In this document: positions 19,701-56,319 of the stretch, one piece after another
Numbering within the stretch: position 1 is the stretch's first letter
Layout of the letters: each line of letters begins with the position of its first letter
From: Actinomycetota bacterium
Lineage (GTDB): Bacteria; Actinomycetota; UBA4738; JBBDHU01
DNA length: 64,000 nt
Direction: 5' to 3'
NCBI GenBank assembly: GCA_040880705.1
Contig: JBBDHU010000006.1
Coordinates: forward strand, 422,832-486,831
Position numbers and translations under genes: made by a program
The notes under the pieces: model-generated
Database searches by the model: none
What the model was told of the DNA's origin: nothing
What the model saw: only the letters and a program-made list of their open reading frames with translations

Positions 19701-19709
19701 ATCGCCCTC

Positions 19710-21670: not shown

Positions 21671-21770
21671 CCTGAACTCCTTCCTTATGAACCTCACCCA
21701 AGAGTCTAGAACCCTGCGAGGGCTGGGACGACCACCAAGAAGTCTAGAGGCCCGCCGGGCCGGAACCCGC

Positions 21771-41115: not shown

Positions 41116-42087
41116 GTGACGTCTTCACCGGTCTTCGTTGTTGGGTGTCCTCGATCGGGGACAACACTTGTCCGGCTGATGCTAGACGCGCATCCCGATC
41201 TCGCGATCCCGCCGGAGTCTCACTTCATCCCGCTGGCTTGGCGTGTTCGTCGCCGGTACGAAGGACCGAACGGCTTCAACGCCGAACTTCTTGCAAGGCA
41301 GATCATGCACGGCCATCGGTTCCGCGAATGGGAGCTCCCGGAGGAGGCGGTGTGGCGGCAGCTGGAGACCTTGGAGCGCCCCGATTTCACGTCGGTTATC
41401 GAAGCCTTCTTCGTGGCCTATTCGGAGTTCCAGGGAAAGCCGAAGTGGGGAGACAAGACCCCTAACTATTCCGCGGATATGCCGCTATTAGCGACCCTGT
41501 GGCCCGATGCGCGGTTCGTTCATGTAGTTCGAGACGGTCGGAATGTGTCGGCTTCGCTGCTGGAAATCCCGCGACCCAGAATGAATATCACTGAGGCGGC
41601 GCAGATGTGGTCGGAGAGGGTCAAGAAGGGGGCGCAAGACGGTCTGTCGCTCGGAGACAGGTATCTGGAAATCCGGTACGAGGATCTTCTGGCAGACGCT
41701 TCCCACATACTCGCACTCGTCTGCGACCACGTGGATTTGGATTTCCGACCCGAGATGCTCGAATTCAGTCGCAGCGCGCCGTCGTCAATCCCCACGCGAT
41801 CTTGGGAGGACTATCACCGGAACCTCGCCAAGCCGCTAACGGTAACGAGGGACTGGCGCGCCTCACTGGCGGCCGCTCAAGTCGCCGCCATAGAGGCGGT
41901 CGCGGGTAATGAGCTCACCGAGTTCGGCTATGAGAGGCATTTCGAAATCGTGCCATTTCATGTGCGGGTGAAGGCGCGTCTCACCGTTCTTCTGAACAAG
42001 GTCATGCACCTGGGATGGAAAATCCGCATTACGATCACGACGCGCTTCCACCCGAATTTCATACCGCCGCCCCGGCGCTGGCTATAA
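41116..42087 (+). CDS. sulfotransferase family protein (PAPS-dependent, Stf-like), paralog 1
   Basis: GTG start. 5'-PSB loop VFVVGCPRSGTTLVRLML and 3'-PB motif VRDGRNVSASL are present. The protein is collinear with the ORFs at 49604 and 53915 (LDxHPDLAIPPES, GDKTP). Confidence 0.75.
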   Translation: MTSSPVFVVGCPRSGTTLVRLMLDAHPDLAIPPESHFIPLAWRVRRRYEGPNGFNAELLARQIMHGHRFREWELPEEAVWRQLETLERPDFTSVIEAFFVAYSEFQGKPKWGDKTPNYSADMPLLATLWPDARFVHVVRDGRNVSASLLEIPRPRMNITEAAQMWSERVKKGAQDGLSLGDRYLEIRYEDLLADASHILALVCDHVDLDFRPEMLEFSRSAPSSIPTRSWEDYHRNLAKPLTVTRDWRASLAAAQVAAIEAVAGNELTEFGYERHFEIVPFHVRVKARLTVLLNKVMHLGWKIRITITTRFHPNFIPPPRRWL

Positions 42088-42108
42088 CGGAACTCCAATC
42101 GAATTATG

Positions 42109-42192
42109 TGCCCGGGGAGGGATTCGAACCCTCACGCCCCGAAGGGCAGGCGCTTTTAAGGCGCCGTCGTCTACCGTTTCCGACACCCGGGC
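42109..42192 (-). tRNA. tRNA-Leu (anticodon TAA)
   Basis: The minus strand reads GCCCGGGTGTCGGAAACGGTAGACGACGGCGCCTTAAAAGCGCCTGCCCTTCGGGGCGTGAGGGTTCGAATCCCTCCCCGGGCA. It has a 7-bp acceptor stem, an anticodon loop CUUAAAA, a long variable arm and T-loop GGTTCGAATCC, and is 84 nt. No CCA is encoded. Confidence 0.85.
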
Positions 42193-42215
42193 CTGGCGGG
42201 TGCTTCGAATAGATC

Positions 42216-43196
42216 CTAGGCCCGCTGAGCCCATGGGCCCGCTCGCTCCGCGAACCATTCAACGGTCATTCGTAGGCCCTCCTCAAAGGAGAACTTGGGC
42301 CGGTACCCCAGAACTTCCTCAGCCTTGCTGATATCGGCCTGGCTCGTTCGTATCTCGCCGACCCTCGGCGGTTCTCGCTGCGGTTCTAAGTGGTCTCCGG
42401 GAACCAGTCCCTGGATCGTTTGAAGCAAGTCGTTGACGGAGTGACGGCCGTTGTACGCCACGTTGATGACTTTCCCTAAGGCTTTCTCCCCGGCCTCCGC
42501 GGCCAGGAGGTTTGCAGCGACCACGTCGCCGACGAAAGTGAAATCGCGGGCTTGCTCGCCATCCCCGTATATAGTCGCGGGCTCGTCATCCATCGTCGCG
42601 GAAATGAAACGGGGAACGACAGCCGCGTACTCTGCCGTCGGGTTCTGATTCGGGCCGAACACATTGAAGTATCGAAGCGAAACGGTGGCCAGCCCGAAAG
42701 AGTGATGGAAAGCGGAGGCATAGGCTTCCCCGGCAAGCTTGGAGACGCCATAGGGAGACAGTGGATGTGTGGGAAGGTCCTCGGACACTGGCATTCGTTC
42801 GGCGTTTCCGTAAACCGAGGAGGAAGACGCAAATACGACACGCTCGACGTGCTCGTCACGAGCCGCCATGAGTACGTTCAGCGTGCCGGTGACATTAGCC
42901 ATATGTGTCGCACGAGGATCTTTGACCGACCGGGCAACGGAAGGAATCGCAGCTTGATGAAACGCAGCCTTGACGTCGCGCATGGCCTCTAGAACCGTCG
43001 CGGCATCTCGAACGTCCCCGTTCATGAACTGAACCTGCTCCGACGAGAACTGCGCCAGATTCTCCGTCCTTCCAGTAGACAGGTCATCCAGCACACGGAC
43101 ACGATCGCCTCGTTCCACCAATGCTTGGACGAGGTTCGAACCGATGAAGCCCGCCCCTCCGGTGACGAGGTGTAGACCGCGCGAACCTACGACCAA
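42216..43196 (-). CDS. NAD-dependent epimerase/dehydratase (UDP-sugar 4-epimerase-like, short-chain dehydrogenase/reductase)
   Basis: N-terminal Rossmann motif VTGGAGFIGSNLV, a catalytic YxxxK (PYGVSKLAGE) and a 326-aa length. Confidence 0.85.
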   Translation of the reverse strand: MVVGSRGLHLVTGGAGFIGSNLVQALVERGDRVRVLDDLSTGRTENLAQFSSEQVQFMNGDVRDAATVLEAMRDVKAAFHQAAIPSVARSVKDPRATHMANVTGTLNVLMAARDEHVERVVFASSSSVYGNAERMPVSEDLPTHPLSPYGVSKLAGEAYASAFHHSFGLATVSLRYFNVFGPNQNPTAEYAAVVPRFISATMDDEPATIYGDGEQARDFTFVGDVVAANLLAAEAGEKALGKVINVAYNGRHSVNDLLQTIQGLVPGDHLEPQREPPRVGEIRTSQADISKAEEVLGYRPKFSFEEGLRMTVEWFAERAGPWAQRA

Positions 43197-43211
43197 GACG
43201 GGGCCAATCTC

Positions 43212-45128
43212 CTAGTCTTCGTCCGCCGGAACTTCAAGGAGATCCGCGAGCGTTTCATCCGTAACGGCGCCCGGAGCTGGATGGTAAGTGGAAACAGTCT
43301 CCTGAAGAAGGGCCCGGATCCTTGCGGGATTCCCTTCCGCCGCGGCTTCCGAAAGCAGCGTCAGGTTGCGCTCCAGTGAGTCGGGGTCGGGCTCAGCGCC
43401 GATCCCTGCGACGAAAATCTTCTCTTCAACCGTCGCAACGGTGCCGGCCTCCGCCAGGACAATCTCTTCCTTCATTTTCTCTCCCGGTCGAGCACCAGTG
43501 AACTGGATGGGCACGTCGACGTCCGGCTCGAGCCCCGAGAGGCGGATCAGCGCCTCCGCCAGATCGACGACACGAACCGGGTCTCCCATGTCGAGGGTGA
43601 AGACCTCTCCCCCCCGGCCTAGGGAGGCGGCCCTCAGAATAAGCCTGGCGGCCTCCGTCACGGTCATGACGAATCTCTCCATCGAGGGGTCCGTCACCGT
43701 TATGGGTCCCCCCCGCCGGATCTGTTCCTCCAGAATCGGGAGTAGGCTGCCCCGGCTGCCCAGGACGTTTCCAAATCTGACGGCGACGAACCTTGTGGCG
43801 CTCGACTCGTCAAACCTGTGAACGATCATTTCGGCAACCCTCTTCGACGCTCCCATGACCGAAGTGGGATTCACTGCCTTATCCGTCGAGATGAGAACGA
43901 AGCTCTCGCTCCCCGACTCCGCCGCCGCTTCCGCCATCGCCGCGGTTCCAAGGATGTTGGCGGAGACGGCTTCTTGCGGGTGCGACTCCATCATCGGCAC
44001 ATGTTTATAGGCCGCCGCGTGGAAGACGAGCTGCGGGCGAAAGGTGCCGAAGACCTGCCGCAATCTATCCCGATTCCTGACGTCGCCTACAACTGGAAAC
44101 ACGGGAACGCGGGGTGCGGTGCGCCTCAGGTCGAGTTCGAGACCGAAGAGTCTGGTCTCGTCCTTTTCGAAGAGGACCATCCGGCCCGGCTCGAACTGTG
44201 AGATCTGTCTCGAGAGCTCTGCGCCGACAGAGCCGGCCGCTCCGGTAATAAGGACGGTGGTTCCATACAGATACGATCCAACGGGTCCCATGTCGATGTT
44301 CACGGGTTCCCGCATGAGGAGGTCCTCCACGTTCACCTCCCGGACGGACGAGAGAGTTATGCGACCCTCCAACATCGCCTCGACGCTCGGGAGGATTCGG
44401 ATTCCCTGAACCCCTGCCGTGCGAGCGGCAACGACGACCTCGCGAATAACCGCTCCGGATGCCGACGGCATCGCCACGATCACTTCGTTTACCTTCTCCT
44501 CCGCGATGATCCGCGGCATCTGATCCCGGCCCCCGCGAATGTGGACGCCATGCAGATAGTTCCCGAACTTGACAGGATCGTCGTCGATCACGCCCACGAC
44601 CTTGTAACCACGCCGCGAGTACAGGAGCTCACGGACGAGCTGCTCGCCGGAATGCCCGCCGCCGACCAGGAGCACGCGGACGGAGTCCTCGTTGTGGTCT
44701 CGGGAGGTCAGAACCTGATGGATCCTCCGGCCCATGCGCACTCCGCCCACACCGATCAGCGTGAGGAGGAAGTCGATCGGCAAGATCGAGCGCGGAAGCG
44801 ACGGGAGGCCGAAGTTGCCACCTAACAGATAGGCAAGGGTTCCCCAGGCCAGCGTTCCAACGATGGTTGCCAGTCCCACATTGATCATGTCCCGCGCGCC
44901 GACGTAGCGCCAAGTCAGTCGATAAAGGCGGAACGCGGCGTTCGCGATGAACTTCGGGCCTATCGCAATCAGAAGAAAGGCTGCGATCGCTCCCCAATAC
45001 TTGGGAGGAATGTCCCCATCGAATCGAATGACGAAGGCTCCGTACATAGAGGCGGTGAAGACCAGGTAGTCGCAAGCAAGGAAAAAGAGCACGCGTTTTC
45101 TGTTCGTCGGGTTGAGAAGCTGACTCAT
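43212..45128 (-). CDS. membrane-bound polysaccharide biosynthesis protein CapD/PglF/WbpM family (UDP-N-acetylglucosamine 4,6-dehydratase)
   Basis: 4 N-terminal TM helices, a linker Rossmann region (VLLVGGGHSGEQL) and a catalytic SDR domain (VLITGAAGSVGAEL...AYKHV). Start placed at ATG 45128 (MSQLLNP), which overlaps the upstream stop in an ATGA. Confidence 0.85.
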   Translation of the reverse strand: MSQLLNPTNRKRVLFFLACDYLVFTASMYGAFVIRFDGDIPPKYWGAIAAFLLIAIGPKFIANAAFRLYRLTWRYVGARDMINVGLATIVGTLAWGTLAYLLGGNFGLPSLPRSILPIDFLLTLIGVGGVRMGRRIHQVLTSRDHNEDSVRVLLVGGGHSGEQLVRELLYSRRGYKVVGVIDDDPVKFGNYLHGVHIRGGRDQMPRIIAEEKVNEVIVAMPSASGAVIREVVVAARTAGVQGIRILPSVEAMLEGRITLSSVREVNVEDLLMREPVNIDMGPVGSYLYGTTVLITGAAGSVGAELSRQISQFEPGRMVLFEKDETRLFGLELDLRRTAPRVPVFPVVGDVRNRDRLRQVFGTFRPQLVFHAAAYKHVPMMESHPQEAVSANILGTAAMAEAAAESGSESFVLISTDKAVNPTSVMGASKRVAEMIVHRFDESSATRFVAVRFGNVLGSRGSLLPILEEQIRRGGPITVTDPSMERFVMTVTEAARLILRAASLGRGGEVFTLDMGDPVRVVDLAEALIRLSGLEPDVDVPIQFTGARPGEKMKEEIVLAEAGTVATVEEKIFVAGIGAEPDPDSLERNLTLLSEAAAEGNPARIRALLQETVSTYHPAPGAVTDETLADLLEVPADED

Positions 45129-46318
45129 GCGGCCGCCTCGCCCAATCCCGACCGCAGCGCGTCGCACACCCTGGCGACCTCGGTCCTCGACAGGCCCCCG
45201 TATAGAGGAACGATGACATTGCGCGCCGCGGCGTCGTCCGTGACGGGGAGAGGGCCAGGCGCGAGGTGTGGTCTGACCGCGTACGGGGGCTGGCGATGCA
45301 CGGGTGGATCGAAGTAGGCTTTCGACTCGATTCCCTTCGCGTTGAGATGCAGAACGACTTTGTCGCGGTCGACTTCCTTCGACACCAGGAGGAACTCAAC
45401 AAACCACGACGGCTTTGCCCATGAAGCCGCGCGTGGGGTGGAGACGCCCTCGACTCCGGCCAGTTCTTCCTGATACCACGACACGACCCGGCTCCGCCGT
45501 TCGAGGATCTCATCTACCCGGCGCATCTGCGCGACGCCCAGGGCCGCGGACAACTCGTCGAGCCTGTAGTTGTAGCCGATTCTCGTGTGATGCAGCCAGG
45601 GGTCACCCGAGCGACGGCCCTGATTGCGCAAGCTTCTGATTCGCTCCTCGATGTCTGGATCAGTCCCGGTTGCCATTCCTCCTTCACCGGTCGTGATCTG
45701 CTTGTTCGGATAAAAACCGTACACGGTGATCTTTGCACCGGTCCCCGCATGAACCCACGCATCGGACCTTTGAAATTGCGAGCCCAGCGCCTCGCAGGAG
45801 TCGCTCACTACTGGGATCGAAGCGGGAGCCGCGATTTCAATGATCTCGTCGAGCTTCGCCGGATGCCCGAAGATGTCGACGGGCATGACTGCGGCAACTC
45901 GACGTCCCGTATTGGGATCGTGGAGGCCGTCCTCAGCCTCCTTACAGCTGTCGAGATATTGACGAAGCGCCGATGGCGAGAGACAAAGCGAATCGGGATC
46001 CACGTCGAGAAAGACAGGCTCGGCTCCTTCATAGGACAGCGCATTGGCCGCAGCGATGAAGGAAAGGGAGGAGGTGACCGCACAATCCTCGGGTCCGATG
46101 GACAAGGCTCTCACGGCAATGTGGAGAGCCGCGGTGCCACTCGAAACGGCGGCCGCCCAGGGACTCCCCACGAAACCTGCGAAAAGCCGCTCGAACTCGC
46201 CCGTCTTTGGACCCAACGCCAGCCGGCCACCGCGCAACGCGCCGAGCACCTCCTCCTCCTCGGCCGTTCCGAGGTCGGGCCTGGCAAGCGGTATCGGAGG
46301 ATCATTGTCGTTTTTCAT
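45125..46318 (-). CDS. DegT/DnrJ/EryC1/StrS-family aminotransferase (sugar 4-aminotransferase, PglE/WbpE-like)
   Basis: Region FAGFVGSPWAAAVSSGTAALHIA..., a PLP-lysine region (YPNKQITTGEGGMATGTD) and an NYRLDELSAALG motif. Length is 397 aa. Confidence 0.85.
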   Translation of the reverse strand: MKNDNDPPIPLARPDLGTAEEEEVLGALRGGRLALGPKTGEFERLFAGFVGSPWAAAVSSGTAALHIAVRALSIGPEDCAVTSSLSFIAAANALSYEGAEPVFLDVDPDSLCLSPSALRQYLDSCKEAEDGLHDPNTGRRVAAVMPVDIFGHPAKLDEIIEIAAPASIPVVSDSCEALGSQFQRSDAWVHAGTGAKITVYGFYPNKQITTGEGGMATGTDPDIEERIRSLRNQGRRSGDPWLHHTRIGYNYRLDELSAALGVAQMRRVDEILERRSRVVSWYQEELAGVEGVSTPRAASWAKPSWFVEFLLVSKEVDRDKVVLHLNAKGIESKAYFDPPVHRQPPYAVRPHLAPGPLPVTDDAAARNVIVPLYGGLSRTEVARVCDALRSGLGEAAA

Positions 46319-46401
46319 CGGCGCCCCGAAATGGTGTCGTGAGACTGCAGGATAGCCGGTCGAGCGTGCTGAATCTCTCTGTTCCCCCGGTTCGGCATTG
46401 C

Positions 46402-47538
46402 CTAGCCGAGCACATCCCGGTAGAGGCTCTCCAGTTCCATCGTCGTGCGATGAATGTCGAAGCGGCCGGAAGCGAGGGCAGCGCGCTTGGCCATGCTCGC
46501 CGCCATCGCCGGATCGGCCATCATTCTCAAGACTCCCTCGGCGAGCGCCTCCGAATTCGCCGGGTCAACCAACCACGCGTCCTCCCCGTGACGCAGAGTC
46601 TCCTCGATCGCCGGAATGCGCGTCGCCACTATTGGTCCGCCTACCGCCATCGCCTCGAGGAGAGCGTTTCCTTGTCCCTCCCACAGCGAGGGAAAGACGA
46701 AGACGTCGCATCTCGAGAGCAAAGAAGGCACATCGCTCCGAATCCCGAGGAATGTAACGCTCTTCCCCAGAGGTCTCGCACGCTGCTCGAGGACCGGGCG
46801 CGAATAGCCGTCGCCCGCTATCAGCAGGACGGCGCCCGGATACTCCGCAAGTATCTTCGGCATCGCGTCGATCAGATACCGGTGGCCCTTCTGGGGAGCC
46901 AGCCTTCCGACGGACAGGATCGACGGCCGCCCGGGGTTCTCGATCGCGGGATGAGGATCCTCCGCCGCCCGTCTTGCAAGTTCTTCCAACGGCTGGCCTC
47001 GCGCGACGACCGAGAACCTGGACCTATCCCACGAGCGCCCTCGAATCGGGTTCTTTGCCGCAGCTTGAGAGATCGCCACAAAGCGATCCACCAGGAAACG
47101 ACCGGTCAGCTCGTCCAACAACGCCACAACTTGAGCCTTGCGGGCCGTGACCCGCGGCAACTCAGCCTGGTCGCGACCGTGAGGATCCGCATTGAGGACA
47201 TGAGAGATAACTTTCACCCGGGCAATGCGTCCGGCAATGCGTCCGGCGATCGATGACCACACCACCTGTGTATGGATGGCGTCAAACCGACCGCGTCGCA
47301 GAAGCCGGACCAGCCGCGGTACTTGCAGCAACGCCCTGGGCCCCCGGCCGGACTCGAGCGCGTGAACCGGAATGCCGAGCGCTTCGATGTCTCTTCGGAG
47401 AGTCATCGGCTCCCACAATGACGCTACCTCGCCGTCGATGTAGTCGCGATTCAAGAACCGCAGCGTTAGGACAAGCCCTCGTTCCGCCCCGCCAATGCCG
47501 AGGCTATCTACGAGAAAGAGAATGCGCCGGGTAATCAC
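46402..47538 (-). CDS. glycosyltransferase family 4
   Basis: N-terminus LVDSLGIGGAER and the C-terminal E-x7-E region (FVFPSLWEGQGNALLEAMAVGGPIVAT) are typical of GT4 retaining GT-B enzymes. Confidence 0.8.
   Translation of the reverse strand: MITRRILFLVDSLGIGGAERGLVLTLRFLNRDYIDGEVASLWEPMTLRRDIEALGIPVHALESGRGPRALLQVPRLVRLLRRGRFDAIHTQVVWSSIAGRIAGRIARVKVISHVLNADPHGRDQAELPRVTARKAQVVALLDELTGRFLVDRFVAISQAAAKNPIRGRSWDRSRFSVVARGQPLEELARRAAEDPHPAIENPGRPSILSVGRLAPQKGHRYLIDAMPKILAEYPGAVLLIAGDGYSRPVLEQRARPLGKSVTFLGIRSDVPSLLSRCDVFVFPSLWEGQGNALLEAMAVGGPIVATRIPAIEETLRHGEDAWLVDPANSEALAEGVLRMMADPAMAASMAKRAALASGRFDIHRTTMELESLYRDVLG
47221..47244 (-). repeat. 2 tandem copies of a 12-bp unit (ggcaatgcgtcc), in frame inside the GT4 gene; it encodes AGRIAGRI
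   Basis: Read directly from the sequence at 47221-47232 and 47233-47244. It is a second example of a short in-frame tandem duplication in this window. Confidence 0.85.
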
Positions 47539-47587
47539 GGGAATCTATCACGCATAATTCGAGCCTCCTGCGTCGTAAGGTAGGCGT

Positions 47588-48787
47588 ATGACGGCAGAAG
47601 CGCCCCGTGTAGCCGACGTCGTTCCATCTCTCAAGCTCCGCGGCGCCGAGGTTTTCGTCCAACAGCTCGAGAGCGTTCTCCGTGACAAATACAACTTTCG
47701 TCTGTTCACGCTCTACAACGAAGGCAATCCGCTTCCGGTTGGTGGGCGGCACCTGGACATCAGCCGCGGTGTCTCACAGGGGCCGGGTCGCAGGCTGCGA
47801 GCCGCCCTTGACCTCCGTCGCCGGGTGACCGCATTCGGTCCCCGCGTCATCCATGTACGAGGAGGCGATCCATTGCGCCTGTGTGTCCTCGCAGGCCTTC
47901 ACCGGATAGCCCCACTCGTTTATGTACGAATTTCGGAGGTGCCATCGAACCTACGGACACCACTCAGAACGCTGTCCATCCGCGCGGCCTACGCGCGGGT
48001 GTCCGTCTTTGTAGCCGTCAGTGAATCACTTCGGCGAGAGATGGTCGAGGTGTTCGGGATACCGCCCGAGCGCATAGAGGTCATCCCGACGGGGAGGCTC
48101 GGTCCCCCCTTGCCGTCGTCCGAGGAGACCTCAACAATCCGAGACGAGGTCGGCGCGAGGCCGGGCGGTCCGCTCGTTTCCTGGGTTGGTCGCCTGTCCG
48201 CAGAAAAGAACCCCGAAGCCGCACTGGCCGTTGCTCGTCATCTGGAGAAGCTCGCCCCAGAGGCGACACTGGTTGTCGTCGGGGATGGGCCGCTCGAGCA
48301 AACCATCCGAGCCCGGGCGGGCAGCAACGTTACGTTTGCAGGGGCCCGCCCCGATGCCGCCCGGATCATCGCCGCATCGGACATCTTGCTTTCAACGAGT
48401 GCCCACGAGGGTCTGCCGGGCGTCGTCGTCGAGGCGTTACTCTCCGGAGTTCCGGTAGTGGCCAATGATGTCGGCGGGATCGGCGAAGCGATCACGGATG
48501 GCGAGACCGGCCTTCTCGTGCCCGCGAGCAGCCGCGAGGCCTTGGCGCGGGCCGTGGTACGAATCGCGCATGATCCCGCCCTCCGGGCTCGCATGGCCGA
48601 AAAGGCGAGGCGTTCCGCCCAACGATTTGAGATGGGCACGGTCTCCGAGGAATACGACCTTCTGTATCGCAAGCTTGGCGTCCTCGCTAGCGGCGAGGAC
48701 CAACGCTTAACGCATACTCGGAGGCCTCCGCCACGGACGGACGCAACGAGCGAGCCAGATGCCAAAGATTCGCAGCCTCCGGCCTGA
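47588..48787 (+). CDS. glycosyltransferase family 4 (with a Pro/Thr/Asp-rich C-terminal tail)
   Basis: GT4 C-terminal motif (LSTSAHEGLPGVVVEALLSGVPVVANDVGGIGE). The tail RPPPRTDATSEPDAKDSQPPA overlaps the convergent GT2 gene. Confidence 0.75.
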   Translation: MTAEAPRVADVVPSLKLRGAEVFVQQLESVLRDKYNFRLFTLYNEGNPLPVGGRHLDISRGVSQGPGRRLRAALDLRRRVTAFGPRVIHVRGGDPLRLCVLAGLHRIAPLVYVRISEVPSNLRTPLRTLSIRAAYARVSVFVAVSESLRREMVEVFGIPPERIEVIPTGRLGPPLPSSEETSTIRDEVGARPGGPLVSWVGRLSAEKNPEAALAVARHLEKLAPEATLVVVGDGPLEQTIRARAGSNVTFAGARPDAARIIAASDILLSTSAHEGLPGVVVEALLSGVPVVANDVGGIGEAITDGETGLLVPASSREALARAVVRIAHDPALRARMAEKARRSAQRFEMGTVSEEYDLLYRKLGVLASGEDQRLTHTRRPPPRTDATSEPDAKDSQPPA

Positions 48788-49532
48788 TCCTGAGAGACCG
48801 CAGCAGCGCCGATCGAGCAAGCCTTTGATCACCGAGTCGGTTGGCCATGAGACCAACCCTTTTCCAAAGAAAGGCAGTCGCCCGCGGATGCGCGGTGAAG
48901 TAGCCCGAGTATTCGTCCAGGAGCATCAACCTGCACCTGATGCGCGAGCGAAGATCCGTGTACTTTCGGGGACCACTCGCCCCCCGGAACATGTAACCGA
49001 CCTGTGGAACGGTTGCCACGCGGTGTTCCCGCGCGAGTCGGAGCCACCACTCGATATCCTCCGCCGCGGCGTATCTTGGATCGAACTTCGGCGCGATCCT
49101 CGCTTCGAGCGCCGTCCGGCCGACGTGCGGGGCCATTCCGTCAAGGATCGTGTCGTAAACGTTGCCTTCCAGGATCCTTCCTCGCCGGGGGTTGGCCCAG
49201 CAAACGGCAATGGGAGCGCGTTCGAGTCCCTCCAGGGCGATCTCCAATCGCCTCTCAGTGAACACGTCGTCGTCGTCGAGAAACGCGAGGAAGCGGCCTC
49301 TCGCGCCATCGAGGCCCGTGTTTCGCGCGGCCGACGGCCCGCCGTTGTTCTCTCTTCGGACTAGCTTGAGACGCGGGTCATCCGGGACGTTCACCGGTTC
49401 GGGGCTCGCATCATCGACGACTATGCACTCGAAATCCTGAATGCTCTGATTGAGTAGCGATTCAATCGCGGTGCGAAGATACACAGGACGTCCGTGAGTC
49501 GGAATGATTATGCTGAATAGCGGCGTCGCCAC
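48687..49532 (-). CDS. glycosyltransferase family 2
   Basis: N-terminus FSIIIPTHGRPVYLRTAIESLLNQS and the VVDDASPEP / DDDD motifs are GT2 (GT-A, DxD) signatures. Confidence 0.75.
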   Translation of the reverse strand: MATPLFSIIIPTHGRPVYLRTAIESLLNQSIQDFECIVVDDASPEPVNVPDDPRLKLVRRENNGGPSAARNTGLDGARGRFLAFLDDDDVFTERRLEIALEGLERAPIAVCWANPRRGRILEGNVYDTILDGMAPHVGRTALEARIAPKFDPRYAAAEDIEWWLRLAREHRVATVPQVGYMFRGASGPRKYTDLRSRIRCRLMLLDEYSGYFTAHPRATAFLWKRVGLMANRLGDQRLARSALLRSLRIRPEAANLWHLARSLRPSVAEASEYALSVGPRR

Positions 49533-49603
49533 GAGGCCATGATAGTGGGAAACGTGCTCTCACGATCTTCTCTCACGGCCAGGCCCTTTGCTAGTTTGTT
49601 GGC

Positions 49604-50593
49604 GTGCCGGATCTTGCGCCTTTCCCGTTCATAGTCGGTGCCGAGCGATCGGGTACGACTCTTCTTAGGGTGATGCTCGATCAGCATCCCGACCTGGCCA
49701 TCCCACCGGAGTCCTACTTTCCCGTCTCCATGCGTCCACGACGGGTAGCAGGGGATAAAGACCCCTTCGACGGGGAACGGTTTACGAACAACCTGCTGGT
49801 TCATCCATGGTTTCAAAAATGGAAGCTCGACGCGTCCGCCGTGCTTTCGGCAATGGAAAGGCCGGGTCACATCGACTACCCGGAGGCGATTCGCCGCGTT
49901 TATGGAGCCTATGCCGAATCTCGAGGGAAGCGAGACTATGGCGACAAAACACCCTCCTTTGTGCTTCACATCGACTTGTTATCAGCCATGTTCCCCGAGA
50001 GCCTCTTCGTGCACATCATTAGGGACGGGAGGGATGTCGTCGCCTCCATCCTGGAACGCCGGTGGGGATCCGGACACCTGACGACAGGCGCGGCGACGTG
50101 GGCCGGGCGGGTTGATCGCGGCCGAGCCTGCGGATTGAAACTCGGCGCCGACCGGTACAGGGAAGTCATGTACGAAAGCCTTGTGTCGGAACCCCGTCGG
50201 ATTCTCGAGGAGATTTGCGATTTCCTTGGCATTGCGATGGTCCCGGAGATGTTGAACTACTACGAACACTTTGACGAGCTCGTACCTCAAGCCGAACGCG
50301 AACAGTTTCGCCACCTGTCGCGCCCGCCAACGGCCGGATTACGCGATTGGCGGCGCGACATGCGTCCTTCCGATGTCGCGACCATCGAGGCCGTCGCCGG
50401 CCGGACTCTTTCTGAACTCGGCTACGAGAGAGCATTTTCGGATCCTCCGACCGGTGCTCGTATCCGCGCGGCAGCCGGCGCTCAGCTCATGCGCGCACGT
50501 CGCACCAAGCGCAGGATCAAGAAGGTGCTTCGGCGTGCGATCCCACAGCGAAAACGAGGGAACGCGAGCAAGCGGATCACGAGGGAAGCCTAG
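49604..50593 (+). CDS. sulfotransferase family protein (PAPS-dependent, Stf-like), paralog 2
   Basis: FPFIVGAERSGTTLLRVMLDQHPDLAIPPESYF (5'-PSB) and IIRDGRDVVASI (3'-PB) are present, with a basic C-terminal tail. Confidence 0.75.
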   Translation: MPDLAPFPFIVGAERSGTTLLRVMLDQHPDLAIPPESYFPVSMRPRRVAGDKDPFDGERFTNNLLVHPWFQKWKLDASAVLSAMERPGHIDYPEAIRRVYGAYAESRGKRDYGDKTPSFVLHIDLLSAMFPESLFVHIIRDGRDVVASILERRWGSGHLTTGAATWAGRVDRGRACGLKLGADRYREVMYESLVSEPRRILEEICDFLGIAMVPEMLNYYEHFDELVPQAEREQFRHLSRPPTAGLRDWRRDMRPSDVATIEAVAGRTLSELGYERAFSDPPTGARIRAAAGAQLMRARRTKRRIKKVLRRAIPQRKRGNASKRITREA

Positions 50594-51384
50594 GGAGCCG
50601 GAGTCTCGCTCCCCTGGACCTCTCTTCTGTAGAGATCAATGACCTCGTCCGTCGGTCCATCCGCCCTTACGACGGCACGGTCGAGGTAAACGACTCGAGA
50701 ACACACCCTCTTCACGTCGGCCAGCATGTGGGATACGAATACGAGGGTTTGTCCCCGAGCGCGCATTTCGTCCAATCGCCGCAAACATCTCTGCTGGAAA
50801 GACTCATCGCCAACGGCCAGTACTTCGTCAACAAGAAGCACGTCCGGGTCGAGGTGGACTGCCACAGAGAACCCCAGTCGGACCTCCATGCCGGACGAAT
50901 AACGCTTGACCGGCGTGTCGATGAACCGGCCCAGTTCGGCGAACTCGACGATCTCCTCGAAGCGGCGGCGGATCTCCTTGCGAGAGAGTCCTAGGATCGT
51001 GCCGTACAGGAAAAGGTTCTCTCTGCCCGTCAGCTCGGGGTGAATCCCGCTTCGGATCTCGATCAGTGAACCTATCCGGCCTCGTGTTTTGACGGTTCCG
51101 GACCAGGGCTCGGTTATGCGTGACATCAGCTTAAGCGTCGTCGACTTCCCGCTGCCGTTCGGACCGATGATCCCAACTGCCTCTCCGTCCCGAACATCGA
51201 AGGAAGCGTCCGCAAGCGCCCAAATCTTCGTGCTAGGCACATTCGAGGAGCGACGGAGCCCCGCACGCTCAAGCGCAGTCGAGAACTCTCCGGCCAAGGT
51301 GCGACTCTTCCTGCGCCGATTTCCCAAGCGGTAACGCTTCCACACCCTGTCAAAGTGGATGATCACATCTCCTTCAGATGACAT
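50590..51384 (-). CDS. wzt: ABC transporter ATP-binding protein of a polysaccharide exporter (Wzt/TagH/KpsT-like)
   Basis: Walker A GIIGPNGSGKSTTLK, ABC signature YSSGMEVRLGF and Walker B VLLVDEVLAVGD. Start placed at ATG 51384 (MSSEGDVIIHFDRV). The track's longer N-terminus is Pro/Gly-rich and overlaps wzm. Confidence 0.8.
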   Translation of the reverse strand: MSSEGDVIIHFDRVWKRYRLGNRRRKSRTLAGEFSTALERAGLRRSSNVPSTKIWALADASFDVRDGEAVGIIGPNGSGKSTTLKLMSRITEPWSGTVKTRGRIGSLIEIRSGIHPELTGRENLFLYGTILGLSRKEIRRRFEEIVEFAELGRFIDTPVKRYSSGMEVRLGFSVAVHLDPDVLLVDEVLAVGDESFQQRCLRRLDEMRARGQTLVFVSHMLADVKRVCSRVVYLDRAVVRADGPTDEVIDLYRREVQGSETPAP

Positions 51385-52423
51385 CGGCGAAGGTCCTGTC
51401 GATCCGCTTGTACCACCAGTAAGCCAGCCCGAGCCCGACAGTGGACACGGCCGCGGCCGAACCAAGTGGTCCCCACAAGGGCCATTCCCCGTGGGCAAGG
51501 ATGCGCCTGAAACCGTCCATGATCGGCGCGAGGGGATTCAGATAGACATACGCGTCCGCCAGAGAGCCGTGCAGCACCCCTTCAGGTCCGATCATCTTCG
51601 CCAGGGGGTATGCAACCGGGGTCGCAAAGAGCGCAATCTGGAGGAGCAGCGGTATCCCGTATCGCGTGTCTCGGAAGTAGACCGTTACCGCAGAGAACAC
51701 GAGCGTCACGGCGAGCGAAAACATCGTCAGGATCAGGAGGATGAGCGGATAGGCTATCCATTCGACCTGGGGCGAGAAGCCGTAGGCAATGAGCATGCCG
51801 AACAAAATCACCGTAGAAACGCCGAAATCGACTCCCGAGGAAAGAACGGACGACGCCGGAAAAATCTCCCGCGGCATGTAGATCTTTCTAATGATTGGGG
51901 CATTCGTGATGATGCTGCTGGTCCCCGTCGTGACCGCGCTGGAGAACAATGACCAGGGGACGAGCGCCGTGTAGGAAAAAATGGGATATGGGAGACCCTC
52001 GCTCCCGACTTGGGCGATCCTTCCGAACACCACCGAGAAGATCACCATTAATGTCAGTGGTTGAAGTACAGCCCATACCGCCCCGAGCGCCGCTTGCTTG
52101 TATCTGACCCTAAGGTCCCTCTCCACGAACGTGAGGACGATCTCCCACCGATGAACCAGCTCGGCCAACGCCGCGCGAAGAGAAAGCGGGTAGCGCGTCC
52201 TCGGGGGCGGTTCCAGATCCAGGTCCTCGGTTACACGCGGCCTTACGCGCGGAATCGCCCTGTGGAGACGCTCGGCTTCTTCGAATTCTTCTTGGGTTGC
52301 CGCCTCGAAGAAACCGTCACTCCCCTTGGCCGCGCGCTTCACCATCGGTGATTGCAAATGGAGGTCAGACTCGTCGGCTTCCCCGGTTTCGGGAACGGGG
52401 GGCTCACGTTCCTCGGGCTTCAC
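51374..52423 (-). CDS. wzm: ABC-2 type polysaccharide export permease (Wzm/TagG-like)
   Basis: 6 TM helices and the ABC-2 motif region (LVHRWEIVLTFVERDLRVRYKQAALGAVWAVLQP). The true start may lie 25-30 codons inside (MVKRAAKG...). The acidic N-terminal stretch is uncertain. Confidence 0.75.
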   Translation of the reverse strand: MKPEEREPPVPETGEADESDLHLQSPMVKRAAKGSDGFFEAATQEEFEEAERLHRAIPRVRPRVTEDLDLEPPPRTRYPLSLRAALAELVHRWEIVLTFVERDLRVRYKQAALGAVWAVLQPLTLMVIFSVVFGRIAQVGSEGLPYPIFSYTALVPWSLFSSAVTTGTSSIITNAPIIRKIYMPREIFPASSVLSSGVDFGVSTVILFGMLIAYGFSPQVEWIAYPLILLILTMFSLAVTLVFSAVTVYFRDTRYGIPLLLQIALFATPVAYPLAKMIGPEGVLHGSLADAYVYLNPLAPIMDGFRRILAHGEWPLWGPLGSAAAVSTVGLGLAYWWYKRIDRTFADVI

Positions 52424-52470
52424 GGACGCATTCTACAGAAGGCTACGTGGCGGCCGTATGCTGTCTGGCG

Positions 52471-53277
52471 ATGTCGAGGGTAGTAGCCGTCATCGTCACC
52501 TACAAACGCCCGGAGTTGCTAAGACGCTGCGTCGAGGCGGCATTGCGGCAAACCCGCCGGCCAGATCTCGTTCTGATTGTGGACAACGACCGGATGGCTC
52601 GGCAGGCACTTGATGATTACTTGCCGAACGGCAAGGCACGTCTGGAAGTCATCGAGACAGGCAGTAACTTGGGGCCCGCCGGTGGCTACGAGATCGGCTT
52701 CCGCCTCGCCCTGGAACGAGGGGCGGACAAAATATGGACCCTGGACGACGACGACGAGCCAATGCCCGATTGTCTCGAGAAGTTGCTCGCCGCCGGCGGG
52801 GCCATAGTCACCCCCCTCGAAATTAGGCCCTCCGGATGGGAGGGATTTGCCGGCTCATGGAACGGTGGCCTCATTGACTCGGAGGTGGTCCGCCGTGTCG
52901 GTCCTCCCCGCCGCGAGCTGTTCTTCTGGGCGGAGGACACCGAGTTCTTCCTCCGGGCTAAGCTGGCCGGTTTCCTGCGCCAACGCGAACCGGCGGCAAT
53001 CGTCAAGCACGCCCAGCCCGACGCCCGCCGGCCTGGGGTTGCCAGGAATTGGCGGCTCTACTACGAGATCCGCAACACGCTCTACGTACGCCTCAAGGTC
53101 AGGGACGCCTCACCGAGGCAGGCGTATCGAGCCTCCCTCTCGGTCCTGGGGAAGCCCCTTCGCATCCTGCTGTTCGAGCCTGGGAAACGCGACTCCATGC
53201 GGCTGTGGTGGTGGGGAGTCAGGGACTTTCTTCGGGGACGATTGGGGAAGGTCGTGGACCCCGAGGATCACCGGTAA
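52471..53277 (+). CDS. glycosyltransferase family 2 (GT-A fold)
   Basis: Start placed at ATG 52471 (MSRVVAVIVTYKRPELLRRCVEAAL). The DxD motif is WTLDDDDEP and a GlfT/rhamnosyltransferase-like organisation follows. The track ORF extends 58 codons upstream. Confidence 0.7.
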   Translation: MSRVVAVIVTYKRPELLRRCVEAALRQTRRPDLVLIVDNDRMARQALDDYLPNGKARLEVIETGSNLGPAGGYEIGFRLALERGADKIWTLDDDDEPMPDCLEKLLAAGGAIVTPLEIRPSGWEGFAGSWNGGLIDSEVVRRVGPPRRELFFWAEDTEFFLRAKLAGFLRQREPAAIVKHAQPDARRPGVARNWRLYYEIRNTLYVRLKVRDASPRQAYRASLSVLGKPLRILLFEPGKRDSMRLWWWGVRDFLRGRLGKVVDPEDHR

Positions 53278-53353
53278 TCCCTCGGATGCGTGCTCGATGG
53301 GTTGATGTCCGCGGAAATCCGAGGCATAATCTGGCGGTCCGACGAGAAGGGGG

Positions 53354-53824
53354 ATGCACATGAGGCAACGCGCTGCTCTGGTTGTCGTAGCAGTCGCACT
53401 CTTCGCAATGGCGGCCTACGCACAACCGGCGTTGGCTGCCGTTATCGTTTGTGGAGGTGGGGACTGCATCGGGACATCTAGTCCCGACGACATCACCGGC
53501 ACAGACGGATACGACCGAATTGAAGGCCGCGCTGGGGGCGACACGATTAGTGCCCTCAACAGCTCGGACAAGGTCTTTGGCCAGCTGGGAGCCGACTGGA
53601 TGCACGGTGACGGCGGTCACGACAGGATGAGGGGTGGCGGCTCCGACGACACGATCTGGGGCGACGCCCAACACGACCGTGTCTGGGGCGGTCCAAACGA
53701 CGACACGTTGAACATGCAGGACGACAATTCGGACCCGGTAGTCAACGGAGGTAACGGGTACGACGTCTGCAACGTGGACGCAATCGACACGTGGAGCAAC
53801 TGCGAGGTCGTTAACGTCGCTTAG
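53354..53824 (+). CDS. small secreted calcium-binding repeat protein (RTX-like), paralogous in its N-terminal motif to the 39386 protein
   Basis: Signal peptide AALVVVAVALFAMAAYAQPALAA, then CGGGDCIGTSSPDDITGTDGYDRIEGRAGGDTI..GDGGHDRMRGGGSDDTIWGDAQHDRVWGGPNDD, which are GGxGxD repeats. The Cys-containing start C..GDC.G...ITGT.G.D.IEG is shared with the 39386 protein. Confidence 0.6.
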   Translation: MHMRQRAALVVVAVALFAMAAYAQPALAAVIVCGGGDCIGTSSPDDITGTDGYDRIEGRAGGDTISALNSSDKVFGQLGADWMHGDGGHDRMRGGGSDDTIWGDAQHDRVWGGPNDDTLNMQDDNSDPVVNGGNGYDVCNVDAIDTWSNCEVVNVA

Positions 53825-53830
53825 CTGAGG

Positions 53831-53882
53831 CTGCAAAAGCAAACGAAGCGGGGACGAGAGTCCCCGCTTCTTGCTTTTGCAG
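53831..53882 (+). terminator. long near-perfect hairpin (about 23-bp stem with a 2-nt bulge, 6-nt loop) immediately after the small RTX gene
   Basis: ctgcaaaagcaaacgaagcgggga cgagag tccccgcttcttgcttttgcag, read directly from the sequence. No T-tract follows on either strand, consistent with the U-tract-less terminators common in high-GC Actinobacteria. Confidence 0.45.
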
Positions 53883-53914
53883 GGTGACGAAGGTGGCCCG
53901 GATATACTCGCTCG

Positions 53915-54907
53915 ATGCCTTACGCGCGGTCATCGGGCCCACCTATTTTTGTCGTCGGATGTGGTCGCTCCGGGACCACGATGCTACGTCTGATGCTCGA
54001 TTCACATCCGGAGCTCGCCATCCCGGGCGAGTCGCAATTCATCCCGGCGATCTATAGGAATCGGGAACACTACGTTTCCGGCGGCCGCTTGGACGCCCGG
54101 CGAATGGCCCGCGACATCCTGGGGCGTAGGAATGTGCTGCGGTGGCGCGTGCCCAACGACGCAGTGTTCGATCGCATACGGGAGATATCGGAACCGGATA
54201 TCGCGGATGTGGTCGAGTCGGTGTTCATGGAATACGCGCTCGCTCGCGGAAAGACACGCTGGGGCGACAAGACGCCTCGACACGTGATGTGGATGGATCG
54301 ACTTTCCGACCTCTTCCCCTCGGCTCTATTCGTTCACGTGATCCGCGATGGCCGCGACGTATCGCTGTCCTATGCCGACAAACCGTGGGGGCCCAGAAAC
54401 GCTTGGGAATCTGCCCGCTTGTGGCGGCGCGCGATCACTGCCGGTTTGCGGGCCCGGGACCAGCTGGGAAGGGAGCGTTACCTTGAAGTCCGGTACGAGC
54501 GGCTTGTTTCGGACCCCGAGGCAACCGTCGGGGCAATCTGCGCGTTCGCCCGCCTAGACTTCCACGAATCCATGCTGGACTACTACAAAGACGCCTCGGA
54601 ACGACTCATGATCTCGGCGGAGCAGGTTCGTTTTCATGCCTCCTCGACGGCGCCACCGAGGATCGGAATTCGAGATTGGAGAACCCAGATGAGTGAGGGT
54701 GACGTTCGCGCGTTCGAGTCCGCGGCCGGGGAGGAACTCGGCCTCTTGGGATATGAGCGGCGGTACCCGAGCATGCCGGCACGGTCGAGGGCACTCTCCG
54801 CTGCCGTAATGCAGGGCCTAGAACTCCGGATTCTCGGATCTCGCCTCAAGGCCGCCCTGGCCCGAGGTTCGCACAGGGCCCACGGCTCAGCATCGGACGG
54901 CCCGTAG
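53915..54907 (+). CDS. sulfotransferase family protein (PAPS-dependent, Stf-like), paralog 3
   Basis: PIFVVGCGRSGTTMLRLMLDSHPELAIPGESQF (5'-PSB) and IRDGRDVSLSY (3'-PB) are present. The protein is collinear with the other two paralogs throughout. Confidence 0.75.
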   Translation: MPYARSSGPPIFVVGCGRSGTTMLRLMLDSHPELAIPGESQFIPAIYRNREHYVSGGRLDARRMARDILGRRNVLRWRVPNDAVFDRIREISEPDIADVVESVFMEYALARGKTRWGDKTPRHVMWMDRLSDLFPSALFVHVIRDGRDVSLSYADKPWGPRNAWESARLWRRAITAGLRARDQLGRERYLEVRYERLVSDPEATVGAICAFARLDFHESMLDYYKDASERLMISAEQVRFHASSTAPPRIGIRDWRTQMSEGDVRAFESAAGEELGLLGYERRYPSMPARSRALSAAVMQGLELRILGSRLKAALARGSHRAHGSASDGP

Positions 54908-54912
54908 AGGCG

Positions 54913-56319
54913 GTGCCCGCCGATCTAACCTTCCGCTGCGTCTTCCGCGCGGTGGACTATCCTTTCCTCGGTGAGGGGGACAGCTTGAGTATCGAAACCT
55001 CGAGCAGCGCGAACGTCGGTGTCGATCCGCTCGACGTCCTGGCCGCGCGCATCCGCACGAAGGACGCGAAGGCCGCGGTCGTCGGCCTCGGTTACGTGGG
55101 CCTGCCGCTTTTCACGACCATCTCGGCGGCGGGGTTCGAAACGATCGGCGTCGATGCCGACACGGCAAAGATCGACACGCTGGCCAAGCGCCAGTCGTAC
55201 ATAGCCGACATTTCGGATTCGGTGATCGCCAGCTTGGAACAAGCGAGCTTCCACTCGGATCCCGCGGCGCTACGCAACGCAGACGTGATCATGATCTGTG
55301 TTCCCACGCCACTCACGGATCACACACCGGACCTCTCGCAGGTTCGCGCGGCCACCCAGGACGTGGCCAACAACCTCGCGCCGGGACGCCTGATCATCCT
55401 GGAATCCACTACATATCCTGGAACTACCGAGGAACTCGTGAGGCCGATACTCGAAACCTCGGGATTGCAGGCCGGGCGGGATTTTGCGCTGGCCTACTCG
55501 CCGGAGCGGATCGACCCGGGCCAGCAGGATCACCTGGTCGAGAACACGCCCAAGATCGTTGCCGGACTCGGCGAGCGCGCTCGCGAGCTGGCGACCTCGT
55601 TCTACAGCCAGTTCGTTCGCGAGGTAGTGGCGACATCAACTCCGCGGGAAGCAGAGATGGCGAAGCTCATAGAGAACACTTTCCGTCAAGTCAACATCGC
55701 GCTTGTGAACGAGCTGGCGATCCTAGCGCGGGACTTGGGCGTGGACATCTGGGAGGCGCTCGAGGCAGCCAGCACGAAACCGTTCGGATACATGCCGTTC
55801 TGGCCGGGCCCGGGAGTCGGCGGACACTGCATATCGATTGACCCCTCGTACTTGTCGTGGCGCGCCGGACAGCAAGTCGGATACAGAATCGGTTTCATCG
55901 AACACGCCAACGAGGTCAACAATCGTATGCCCGACTATGTAGTCGCCCGTCTCGGTGAGGCTCTGAACGATGCGGGCAAGCCCATCCGAGGGTCGAAGAT
56001 CCTCGCGGTGGGGGTCGCGTACAAACCCGAGGTGGACGACCGCCGGGAATCGCCTGCGCTGGCCGTGCTCGACCGCCTGGCGAACAAGGGAGCCTCCCTG
56101 TCGTTCCACGATCCGTTCGTGAGGTCGATCACGCTCGACGGCAACGAGCTGGAGTCCCGCGAGCTGGACGAGGAAGCGGTCGCCGAGCAGGACTGCGTCG
56201 TGATCCTGACTCCGCACAAGACCGTTGACTACTTGCGGCTTCTGCGCCTAGCGCCCCTGGTGTTCGACACACGCGGGATCACGAGCGGACTCGACGCGCC
56301 GAACGTCATTCGCCTGTAG
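54913..56319 (+). CDS. nucleotide-sugar dehydrogenase (UDP-N-acetyl-D-glucosamine / UDP-ManNAc 6-dehydrogenase family, WbpA/WecC/Cap5O-like)
   Basis: NAD motif AVVGLGYVGLP, a catalytic Cys region (PGPGVGGHCISID) and a UDPG_MGDP_dh C-terminal domain. The true start may be the internal GTG near 55018. The first roughly 35 codons (MPADLTFRCVFRAVDYP) are atypical. Confidence 0.85.
   Translation: MPADLTFRCVFRAVDYPFLGEGDSLSIETSSSANVGVDPLDVLAARIRTKDAKAAVVGLGYVGLPLFTTISAAGFETIGVDADTAKIDTLAKRQSYIADISDSVIASLEQASFHSDPAALRNADVIMICVPTPLTDHTPDLSQVRAATQDVANNLAPGRLIILESTTYPGTTEELVRPILETSGLQAGRDFALAYSPERIDPGQQDHLVENTPKIVAGLGERARELATSFYSQFVREVVATSTPREAEMAKLIENTFRQVNIALVNELAILARDLGVDIWEALEAASTKPFGYMPFWPGPGVGGHCISIDPSYLSWRAGQQVGYRIGFIEHANEVNNRMPDYVVARLGEALNDAGKPIRGSKILAVGVAYKPEVDDRRESPALAVLDRLANKGASLSFHDPFVRSITLDGNELESRELDEEAVAEQDCVVILTPHKTVDYLRLLRLAPLVFDTRGITSGLDAPNVIRL

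Follow-up and report, generated by a model that had tools for sequence, protein, structure and literature searches.

A stretch of 64,000 nucleotides from an Actinomycetota bacterium (assembly GCA_040880705.1, contig JBBDHU010000006.1, positions 422,832 to 486,831), here called the window, carries three paralogous sulfotransferase genes, ST1, ST2 and ST3, interleaved between positions 41116 and 56319 with genes for nucleotide-sugar enzymes, glycosyltransferases and an ATP-binding cassette (ABC) exporter. We propose, with a probability of roughly 0.6, that the products of this locus make a sulfated, acidic glycan of the cell envelope that contains amino sugars, by an ABC-transporter-dependent pathway. 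Sequence and a structural model make it very probable that ST1-3 are active sulfotransferases of the type that uses 3'-phosphoadenosine 5'-phosphosulfate (PAPS). An earlier note on this DNA, made from its letters alone, had described three collinear sulfotransferases, and all three genes were found on the plus strand with exactly the same coordinates:

41116..42087, plus strand: ST1, predicted PAPS-type sulfotransferase, 323 aa (Sulfotransfer_3, E 4.5e-35)
49604..50593, plus strand: ST2, predicted PAPS-type sulfotransferase, 329 aa (Sulfotransfer_3, E 1.7e-36), convergent with wzt
53915..54907, plus strand: ST3, predicted PAPS-type sulfotransferase, 330 aa (Sulfotransfer_3, E 7.9e-42)

ST1, ST2 and ST3 matched Pfam Sulfotransfer_3 (PF13469) with scores of 122, 127 and 144 bits against a cutoff of 27, and each also exceeded the cutoff of Sulfotransfer_1 (PF00685), in agreement with the family to which they had been assigned. 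Pairwise identity among the three proteins is 36-38%. The 5'-phosphosulfate-binding loop and the RDGRxV motif that had been pointed out earlier are present in all of them; the loop reads GCPRSGTT, GAERSGTT and GCGRSGTT in ST1, ST2 and ST3, respectively, and the 3'-phosphate-binding motif reads VRDGRNV, IRDGRDV and IRDGRDV, with the shared form RDGR-x-V-x-x-S. The P-x-ES and GDKTP motifs are also common to the three paralogs, and the motifs of ST1 comprise RSGTT, E34, DKTP and RDGR..S. Alignment of ST3 with 48 homologs (49 sequences) showed that E39, K119, R144 and S152 of ST3 are invariant. These residues align to E99, K158, R183 and S191 of TPST2, of which we take the first two to be the catalytic base and the catalytic lysine and the last two to be 3'-phosphate binders.

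The AlphaFold model of ST3 had a mean pLDDT of 94.4 and a pTM of 0.91, and a Foldseek comparison of this model with the PDB gave 113 matches at E<=1e-3, the best 50 of which all have the PAP(S)-binding sulfotransferase fold. The top matches were TPST1/2 (E 1e-12, TM 0.6-0.73), followed by CurM, the olefin synthase (OLS) domain, Stf9 and Stf1. Together with the conserved PAPS-binding arginine and serine (R144 and S152), the fold of the model supports the earlier assignment. By sequence, the nearest solved proteins were tyrosylprotein sulfotransferases and the CurM/OLS sulfotransferase domains (E ~1e-13). TPST1/2 and CurM/OLS share with ST1-3 the 5'-phosphosulfate-binding loop, the catalytic Glu/Lys and the 3'-phosphate-binding Arg/Ser, but they are only 18-23% identical to them, act on protein tyrosine or on beta-hydroxyacyl groups on acyl carrier protein (ACP), and occur in other genomic and biological contexts. 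No signal peptide and no hydrophobic or transmembrane segment was found in ST1, ST2 or ST3, and all three have basic C-terminal tails, with a net charge of +5 to +17 over the last 45 residues (+17 in ST2). These features fit soluble enzymes that act on the cytoplasmic side of the membrane.

The remaining genes of the locus and its immediate surroundings, including genes whose part in the system is uncertain, are the following:

35253..36635, minus strand: secreted Cys-type sulfatase with a CCPSR motif and a signal peptide (Sulfatase and SGSH_C), a possible accessory
39386..40837, plus strand: secreted RTX-repeat protein, 483 aa, directly upstream of ST1 (HemolysinCabind, 12 stretches)
42108..42192, minus strand: tRNA-Leu(TAA), between ST1 and the sugar-nucleotide genes (ARAGORN)
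42216..43196, minus strand: SDR nucleotide-sugar epimerase/dehydratase, nearest to TviC-type UDP-GlcNAcA 4-epimerase (Pfam Epimerase, E 2e-64)
43212..45128, minus strand: membrane PglF/CapD-like UDP-N-acetylhexosamine (UDP-HexNAc) 4,6-dehydratase, 638 aa (Polysacc_synt_2, E 4e-105, and CoA_binding_3)
45125..46318, minus strand: DegT/PglE/LegC-like sugar aminotransferase (DegT_DnrJ_EryC1, E 8e-97)
46402..47538, minus strand: GT4a, glycosyltransferase of family GT4 (Glycos_transf_1 and Glyco_trans_1_4)
47588..48787, plus strand: GT4b, glycosyltransferase of family GT4 (Pfam match), divergent from GT4a with a 50-nt spacer
48687..49532, minus strand: GT2a, glycosyltransferase of family GT2 (Glycos_transf_2, E 4e-27)
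50590..51384, minus strand: Wzt/TagH-like ABC ATPase, ~258-264 aa, with no Wzt_C domain (ABC_tran, PF00005)
51374..52423, minus strand: Wzm-like ABC-2 permease (ABC2_membrane, PF01061)
52471..53277, plus strand: GT2b, GlfT1/rhamnosyltransferase-like glycosyltransferase of family GT2 (family and NCBIfam matches)
53360..53824, plus strand: small secreted RTX (HemolysinCabind) protein between GT2b and ST3, of doubtful membership in the system
54985..56319, plus strand: nucleotide-sugar 6-dehydrogenase, 444 aa (TIGR03026, 400 bits, above cutoff)

The dehydratase, aminotransferase, epimerase, two GT2, two GT4 and Wzm/Wzt genes of the earlier description were all recovered as Pfam or NCBIfam matches, and its reading of an ABC-transporter-type glycan locus stands, an ABC-2 permease and an ATPase being encoded beside the two GT2 and two GT4 genes. 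The best NCBIfam match of the epimerase was TviC (244 bits, below the equivalog cutoff). The dehydratase has N-terminal hydrophobic segments and is nearest to the PseB and FnlA equivalogs, and the aminotransferase, whose gene overlaps the dehydratase gene by 4 nt, is nearest to LegC and PseC. For the dehydrogenase, previously called a UDP-HexNAc 6-dehydrogenase, the general assignment as a nucleoside diphosphate (NDP)-sugar dehydrogenase was upheld by TIGR03026, whereas the best equivalogs, UDP-ManNAc dehydrogenase and TviB, both scored below cutoff; as judged from these matches, the enzyme probably acts on UDP-HexNAc. No NCBIfam model other than the generic one for NDP-sugar dehydrogenases reached its cutoff with a glycosyltransferase or sugar-nucleotide enzyme of the locus, and the sugar identities given for this locus are therefore predictions. 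The nearest equivalogs were TagH and the galactan Wzt for the ATPase and the galactan Wzm and KpsM for the permease. Read from the sequence, the start of wzt is either ATG at 51384 or GTG at 51366, the latter just after AAGGAG; the public gene call (216 aa; region 50590-51498) looks N-terminally truncated, and either of these starts gives the usual N-terminal strand. Divergent genes in the locus are separated by spacers of 48-72 nt, which, together with the 4-nt overlap between the dehydratase and aminotransferase genes, suggests co-expression.

Conservation of the locus was investigated by scanning GTDB species genomes with the paralog alignment, which yielded 73 loci, nearly all from uncultured Actinomycetota (Acidimicrobiia, Thermoleophilia/Solirubrobacterales and unclassified lineages); the related loci were read by tblastn of the window proteins and by precomputed gene calls. 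At least nine loci (L002, L004, L005, L009, L015, L016, L018, L031 and L041) hold GT4a, Wzt, Wzm and two to four sulfotransferases together, with a Wzt identity of 74-80%. GT2b is present in six of the nine and missing in L009, L015 and L041, and GT4b and the dehydrogenase are additionally kept in several. L018 also retains the PglF and DegT genes and lies at the same chromosomal site, beside cyclophilin and Ppx genes. The orthologs in the syntenic loci are 54-61% identical for GT4a, 47-50% for GT4b (in L004, L018 and L031) and 55-59% for GT2a. The sulfotransferase, glycosyltransferase and exporter genes are thus kept linked in at least nine relatives and are not scattered, a comparison that the earlier note had called for.

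The three paralogs could also be told apart by their positions in these loci. ST1-type orthologs (51-53% identity) lie inside L002, L004 and L005. ST2-type orthologs (44-53% identity, with ST2 as the best-matching paralog) were found in L002, L004, L005, L016, L018 and L041, where they always adjoin GT4a; Wzt follows directly in L016, L018 and L041, and GT2a lies between the ST2-type gene and Wzt in L002, L004 and L005. ST3-type genes are 49-51% identical to ST3. The presence of three paralog groups with conserved positions suggests that they are old paralogs retained for different jobs. The earlier statement that the glycan is sulfated at up to three positions goes further than this, being drawn from the three conserved paralog groups and not a result.

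The same comparison bears on the possibility that ST1-3 act on unrelated small molecules, in detoxification or signalling, and lie among the glycan genes only because the region is a variable genomic island. In favour of it, the region contains a tRNA gene and is slightly poorer in GC (0.60-0.63) than its flanks, and about half of the 73 loci showed no homolog of the window glycan genes, which makes the observed linkage a lower bound, the window's own proteins having been the only queries. However, at least nine loci keep the gene order with protein identities of 50-80%, L018 does so at the chromosomal site that the locus occupies in the window, each paralog group has its own position, and loci scored negative by tblastn, such as L053, do hold GT2 and GT4 genes when scanned with Pfam. 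We consider a small-molecule role in such an island improbable.

Another explanation, built on analogy with RaxST/RaxX, is that ST1-3 are TPST-like protein tyrosine sulfotransferases of secreted proteins, namely the adjacent RTX proteins. Tyrosylprotein sulfotransferases were the best matches by both sequence and fold, ST1 and ST3 each have an RTX gene immediately upstream, and tyrosines of the RTX proteins occur in acidic contexts such as DGYD and GDDYIEG. In none of the syntenic loci, however, does an RTX gene lie beside the orthologous sulfotransferases, although these loci do keep the glycosyltransferases and the ABC transporter; the identity to TPST is only 21-23%, the fold is able to take substrates other than proteins, as its CurM, Stf and XssE relatives demonstrate, and one homolog is fused to a Bac_transf domain (described below). 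Since the RTX neighbours of ST1 and ST3 are kept in 0 syntenic loci, protein sulfation was rejected as the main explanation and is regarded as very improbable. It would be speculative to connect the RTX proteins at 39386-40837 and 53360-53824 with tyrosine sulfation or with a polyanionic glycan that binds calcium.

Homologs outside the syntenic loci also occur in glycan contexts. L075 encodes a Wzt with a Wzt_C domain, two sulfotransferases, three GT4 and one GT2 glycosyltransferases and deacetylases; L076 encodes two sulfotransferases, a UDP-sugar dehydrogenase, an ABC-2 transporter, sulfatases and GT2 and GT4 enzymes; and in L080 a sulfotransferase homolog lies with Bac_transf, a PglD-like acetyltransferase and GT4. 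In one homolog, P0110 (L081, 3465-4988), a Sulfotransfer_3 domain is fused in one polypeptide to a Bac_transf phosphoglycosyl transferase domain, and the neighbours of P0110 are Wzy_C, a polysaccharide deacetylase and GT4. In the cultured Nonomuraea gerenzanensis (L084, NZ_LT559118.1, 1686563-1711444), PglF-like, DegT, three GT2 and one GT4 genes surround a homolog that has 36% identity to ST1. The replicon NZ_LT559118.1 (11.85 Mb) is listed as a plasmid in PLSDB, without annotation there. The synteny with glycosyltransferases and an ABC exporter, the Bac_transf fusion and the homology to XssE, a protein of a known sulfated-polysaccharide cluster, lead us to infer a carbohydrate acceptor for ST1-3.

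For the proposed sulfated envelope glycan, the pathway may run as follows. The PglF-like dehydratase and the DegT aminotransferase would produce UDP-4-amino-4,6-dideoxy-HexNAc, and the dehydrogenase and the TviC-like epimerase would produce a UDP-HexNAc uronic acid. A priming transferase encoded elsewhere would start the chain on polyprenyl phosphate, and the GlfT1/rhamnosyltransferase-like GT2b, the other GT2 and the two GT4 enzymes would elongate it at the cytoplasmic face of the membrane. Before export, ST1-3 would sulfate the lipid-linked glycan, presumably their acceptor, at distinct positions or on distinct residues with PAPS as the donor, and the short Wzt, which has no carbohydrate-binding domain, would carry the finished chain out together with Wzm. 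Attachment to the wall, or release, would depend on functions encoded outside the window, a step that is speculative.

Several observations weigh against this pathway. The closest solved relatives of ST1-3 act on protein tyrosine or acyl-ACP and not on sugars, and ST1 is parted from the cluster by the tRNA gene and lies behind an RTX gene. The 64-kb window contains no priming phosphoglycosyl transferase (WecA/TagO or Bac_transf), whose gene may lie elsewhere in the genome, as WecA/TagO genes commonly do, no N-acetyltransferase for the 4-amino sugar and no polymer ligase or LCP protein. PAPS-synthesis genes (cysD/N/C) are absent from the window gene calls, and a regular-expression scan for APS-kinase and CysD motifs found 0 matches in the window and 83 loci, which, coming from a regular expression, is a weak negative. 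The nucleotide-sugar toolkit, which the earlier note had called complete, was overstated in this respect, given that the window lacks the priming transferase, N-acetyltransferase, ligase and PAPS-synthesis genes. The absence of the Wzx flippase and Wzy polymerase families of Pfam from the called genes of the window, in contrast, fits an ABC-type pathway. With respect to PAPS, the synechan cluster of Synechocystis also lacks synthesis genes according to its annotated gene list, indicating that cysD/N/C are no strict requirement for a sulfated-polysaccharide cluster.

The locus encodes only four glycosyltransferases, and instead of a polymer it may make a short sulfated glycolipid or oligosaccharide that is exported by the ABC-2 transporter. 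Mycobacterial sulfoglycolipids and sulfated oligosaccharide natural products are the comparison cases for such a product. The lack of a polymerase, a chain-length regulator and a Wzt_C domain is consistent with a short chain, as is the occurrence of Stf1 and Stf9 among the structural matches of the ST3 model. Actinomycete sulfotransferases that act on oligosaccharide natural products do exist, such as Sam10, which sulfates an assembled oligosaccharide antibiotic (PMC13291958). On the other hand, the best matches of Wzt and Wzm are exporters of teichoic acid, galactan and capsule, GT2b is similar to enzymes of the GlfT1/WbbL type, whose substrates are polyprenol-linked primers, and the contexts of the homologs hold Wzy_C, Bac_transf and polysaccharide deacetylases. 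Genes for polyketide synthases, nonribosomal peptide synthetases and deoxysugar natural products are all absent. We therefore regard a short glycan as unlikely, and the envelope polymer is preferred.

The window locus was compared with known systems. The synechan (xss) cluster of Synechocystis sp. PCC 6803 makes a product that was chemically verified as a sulfated exopolysaccharide, and ABC-type sulfotransferase clusters have been noted in other cyanobacteria (PMC8205485). Like the window, the synechan cluster has genes for PAPS-type sulfotransferases scattered among those for GT2 and GT4 enzymes, and XssE (sll5046, on pSYSM) is homologous to ST3 over the full length (24% identity, E 2e-24), whereas XssA matches ST3 over part of its length only. 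It differs in its Wzx/Wzy/PCP export, its diderm cyanobacterial host and its plasmid location, in having two sulfotransferases of different subfamilies and its own regulators, XssQRS, and in its repeat of neutral sugars (Rha/Man/Gal/Glc) instead of amino and uronic sugars. The capsule of Vibrio sp. KMM 8419, the sulfation of which was shown by nuclear magnetic resonance, resembles the window by gene content, with ABC-dependent export and three sulfotransferase genes; it differs in its Gram-negative KpsMT system (group 3 capsule), its 80-gene region and its own cysDNC for PAPS, a hallmark according to its authors, of which the window has none (PMC11641403).

Closer in host, the wps-1 cluster of Actinoplanes missouriensis contains two sulfotransferases that are required for a surface-matrix phenotype, and a sulfated polysaccharide was predicted as its product (PMC13390465). 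It is, like the window locus, an actinomycete cluster with multiple sulfotransferases for which a sulfated polysaccharide is a prediction, but it is Wzx/Wzy/Wzz-dependent, its host is cultured and sporangium-forming, and its sulfotransferases are annotated as Gal/GlcNAc and heparan-sulfate types (PMC13390465). The best NCBIfam matches of the window Wzt, Wzm and GT2b belong to monoderm TagGH teichoic-acid export and the mycobacterial galactan Wzm/Wzt/GlfT1 pathway, which have the same short Wzt without a carbohydrate-binding domain; the scores of all three window proteins against these models are below the equivalog cutoffs. To our knowledge, no sulfotransferases occur in the TagGH or mycobacterial galactan Wzm/Wzt pathways. 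The earlier claim that a multi-sulfotransferase Wzm/Wzt locus in a monoderm is no described system was too strong in view of synechan, Vibrio KMM 8419 and Actinoplanes wps-1, and what survives of it is that, within the literature searched, the ABC-type multi-sulfotransferase version in Actinomycetota is undescribed, as is its distribution across uncultured lineages. We found no description in the literature of ABC-type multi-sulfotransferase loci in Actinomycetota or of sulfotransferase expansions in Acidimicrobiia or Solirubrobacterales, and nothing relevant on sulfated wall glycopolymers in actinobacteria. The window locus is distinctive in being ABC-type, in belonging to a monoderm phylum, in having three XssE/TPST-like paralogs and in having no PAPS genes of its own.

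Multiple sulfotransferases are frequent in the wider set of loci, with at least two homologous genes within 10 kb of the match in 48 of the 73. Metagenome-assembled genomes of Solirubrobacterales/Thermoleophilia contain same-strand tandem arrays of six to eight genes by tblastn, or 6-10 Sulfotransfer_3 paralogs within ~15 kb (L035, L038, L042, L044, L045, L047, L049, L051, L053, L059, L061, L063, L068, L069, L073 and L074). The array of L053 comprises at least 10 sulfotransferases once Pfam is applied, with GT2 and GT4 genes interleaved. Two loci, L027 (~1.2-18.8 kb) and L056 (~3.7-18.8 kb), encode five sulfotransferases followed on the same strand by five tandem sulfatase homologs, which suggests paired modules for sulfation and desulfation. 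No paper describing the Solirubrobacterales sulfotransferase arrays was found.

Sulfatases recur beside sulfotransferase homologs in L027, L042, L056, L058, L062, L066, L073, L076 and L080. In the window, the sulfatase gene at 35253-36635 lies 4.5 kb from ST1, and no formylglycine-generating enzyme was seen there. Pairs of alpha/beta-hydrolases (Abhydrolase_1/Hydrolase_4) flank sulfotransferases in L076 (7206-12923), L079 (5868-7675) and L080 (5936-11083) and are absent from the window.

Elsewhere in the window, a complete Tad/Flp pilus cluster (15561-23102, minus strand) encodes Flp, TadE, a TadG-like protein, RcpC/CpaB, a ParA-like ATPase, the TadA ATPase, a TadB-VWA fusion and TadC. The cluster adjoins a heme biosynthesis operon, and the VWA-TadB fusion is unusual. 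At 57070-58452 (minus strand), DUF501 and a Ppx/GppA phosphatase are fused in a protein of 460 aa; in mycobacteria, DUF501 and Ppx/GppA are encoded by the adjacent separate genes Rv1025 and Rv1026. The order downstream of the glycan locus (cyclophilin, DUF501-Ppx, S1, DivIC, enolase) is a conserved actinobacterial arrangement. Apart from one metagenome contig at 86%, no non-self enolase exceeds 72% identity, and the enolase matches that bear names are all from unclassified Actinomycetota/Actinobacteria metagenome-assembled genomes; by this measure the host is a deep uncultured lineage of Actinomycetota.

Sulfated polysaccharides have long been regarded as a speciality of animals, algae and cyanobacteria. 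According to two recent papers, cyanobacteria alone make them among bacteria (PMC8205485, PMC13390465). The conserved three-sulfotransferase ABC locus and the Solirubrobacterales arrays suggest that sulfated glycans are widespread in the envelopes of abundant soil bacteria. A tentative extension is that heavily sulfated, glycosaminoglycan-like glycans (HexNAc-uronic acid plus amino sugar) might be common in the envelopes of uncultured Actinomycetota of soil and sediment and have gone unrecognised so far. If so, the window would represent a three-sulfotransferase version, and the Solirubrobacterales arrays of 6-10 sulfotransferases, some with five tandem sulfatases behind them, would imply a programmable "sulfation code" with dedicated turnover. 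Within this reading, one of the window paralogs could N-sulfate the free amine of the 4-amino sugar, as the locus encodes a 4-aminotransferase and lacks an N-acetyltransferase; we know of no example of such N-sulfation in bacterial glycans. The Nonomuraea gerenzanensis homolog offers an experimental entry point in a cultured host, and such loci would be a source of new regiospecific polysaccharide sulfotransferases for heparin-like materials. Glycans of this kind, if they are made, would bear on cell-surface charge and cation binding in these bacteria and on the organic sulfur that soils contain as ester sulfate.

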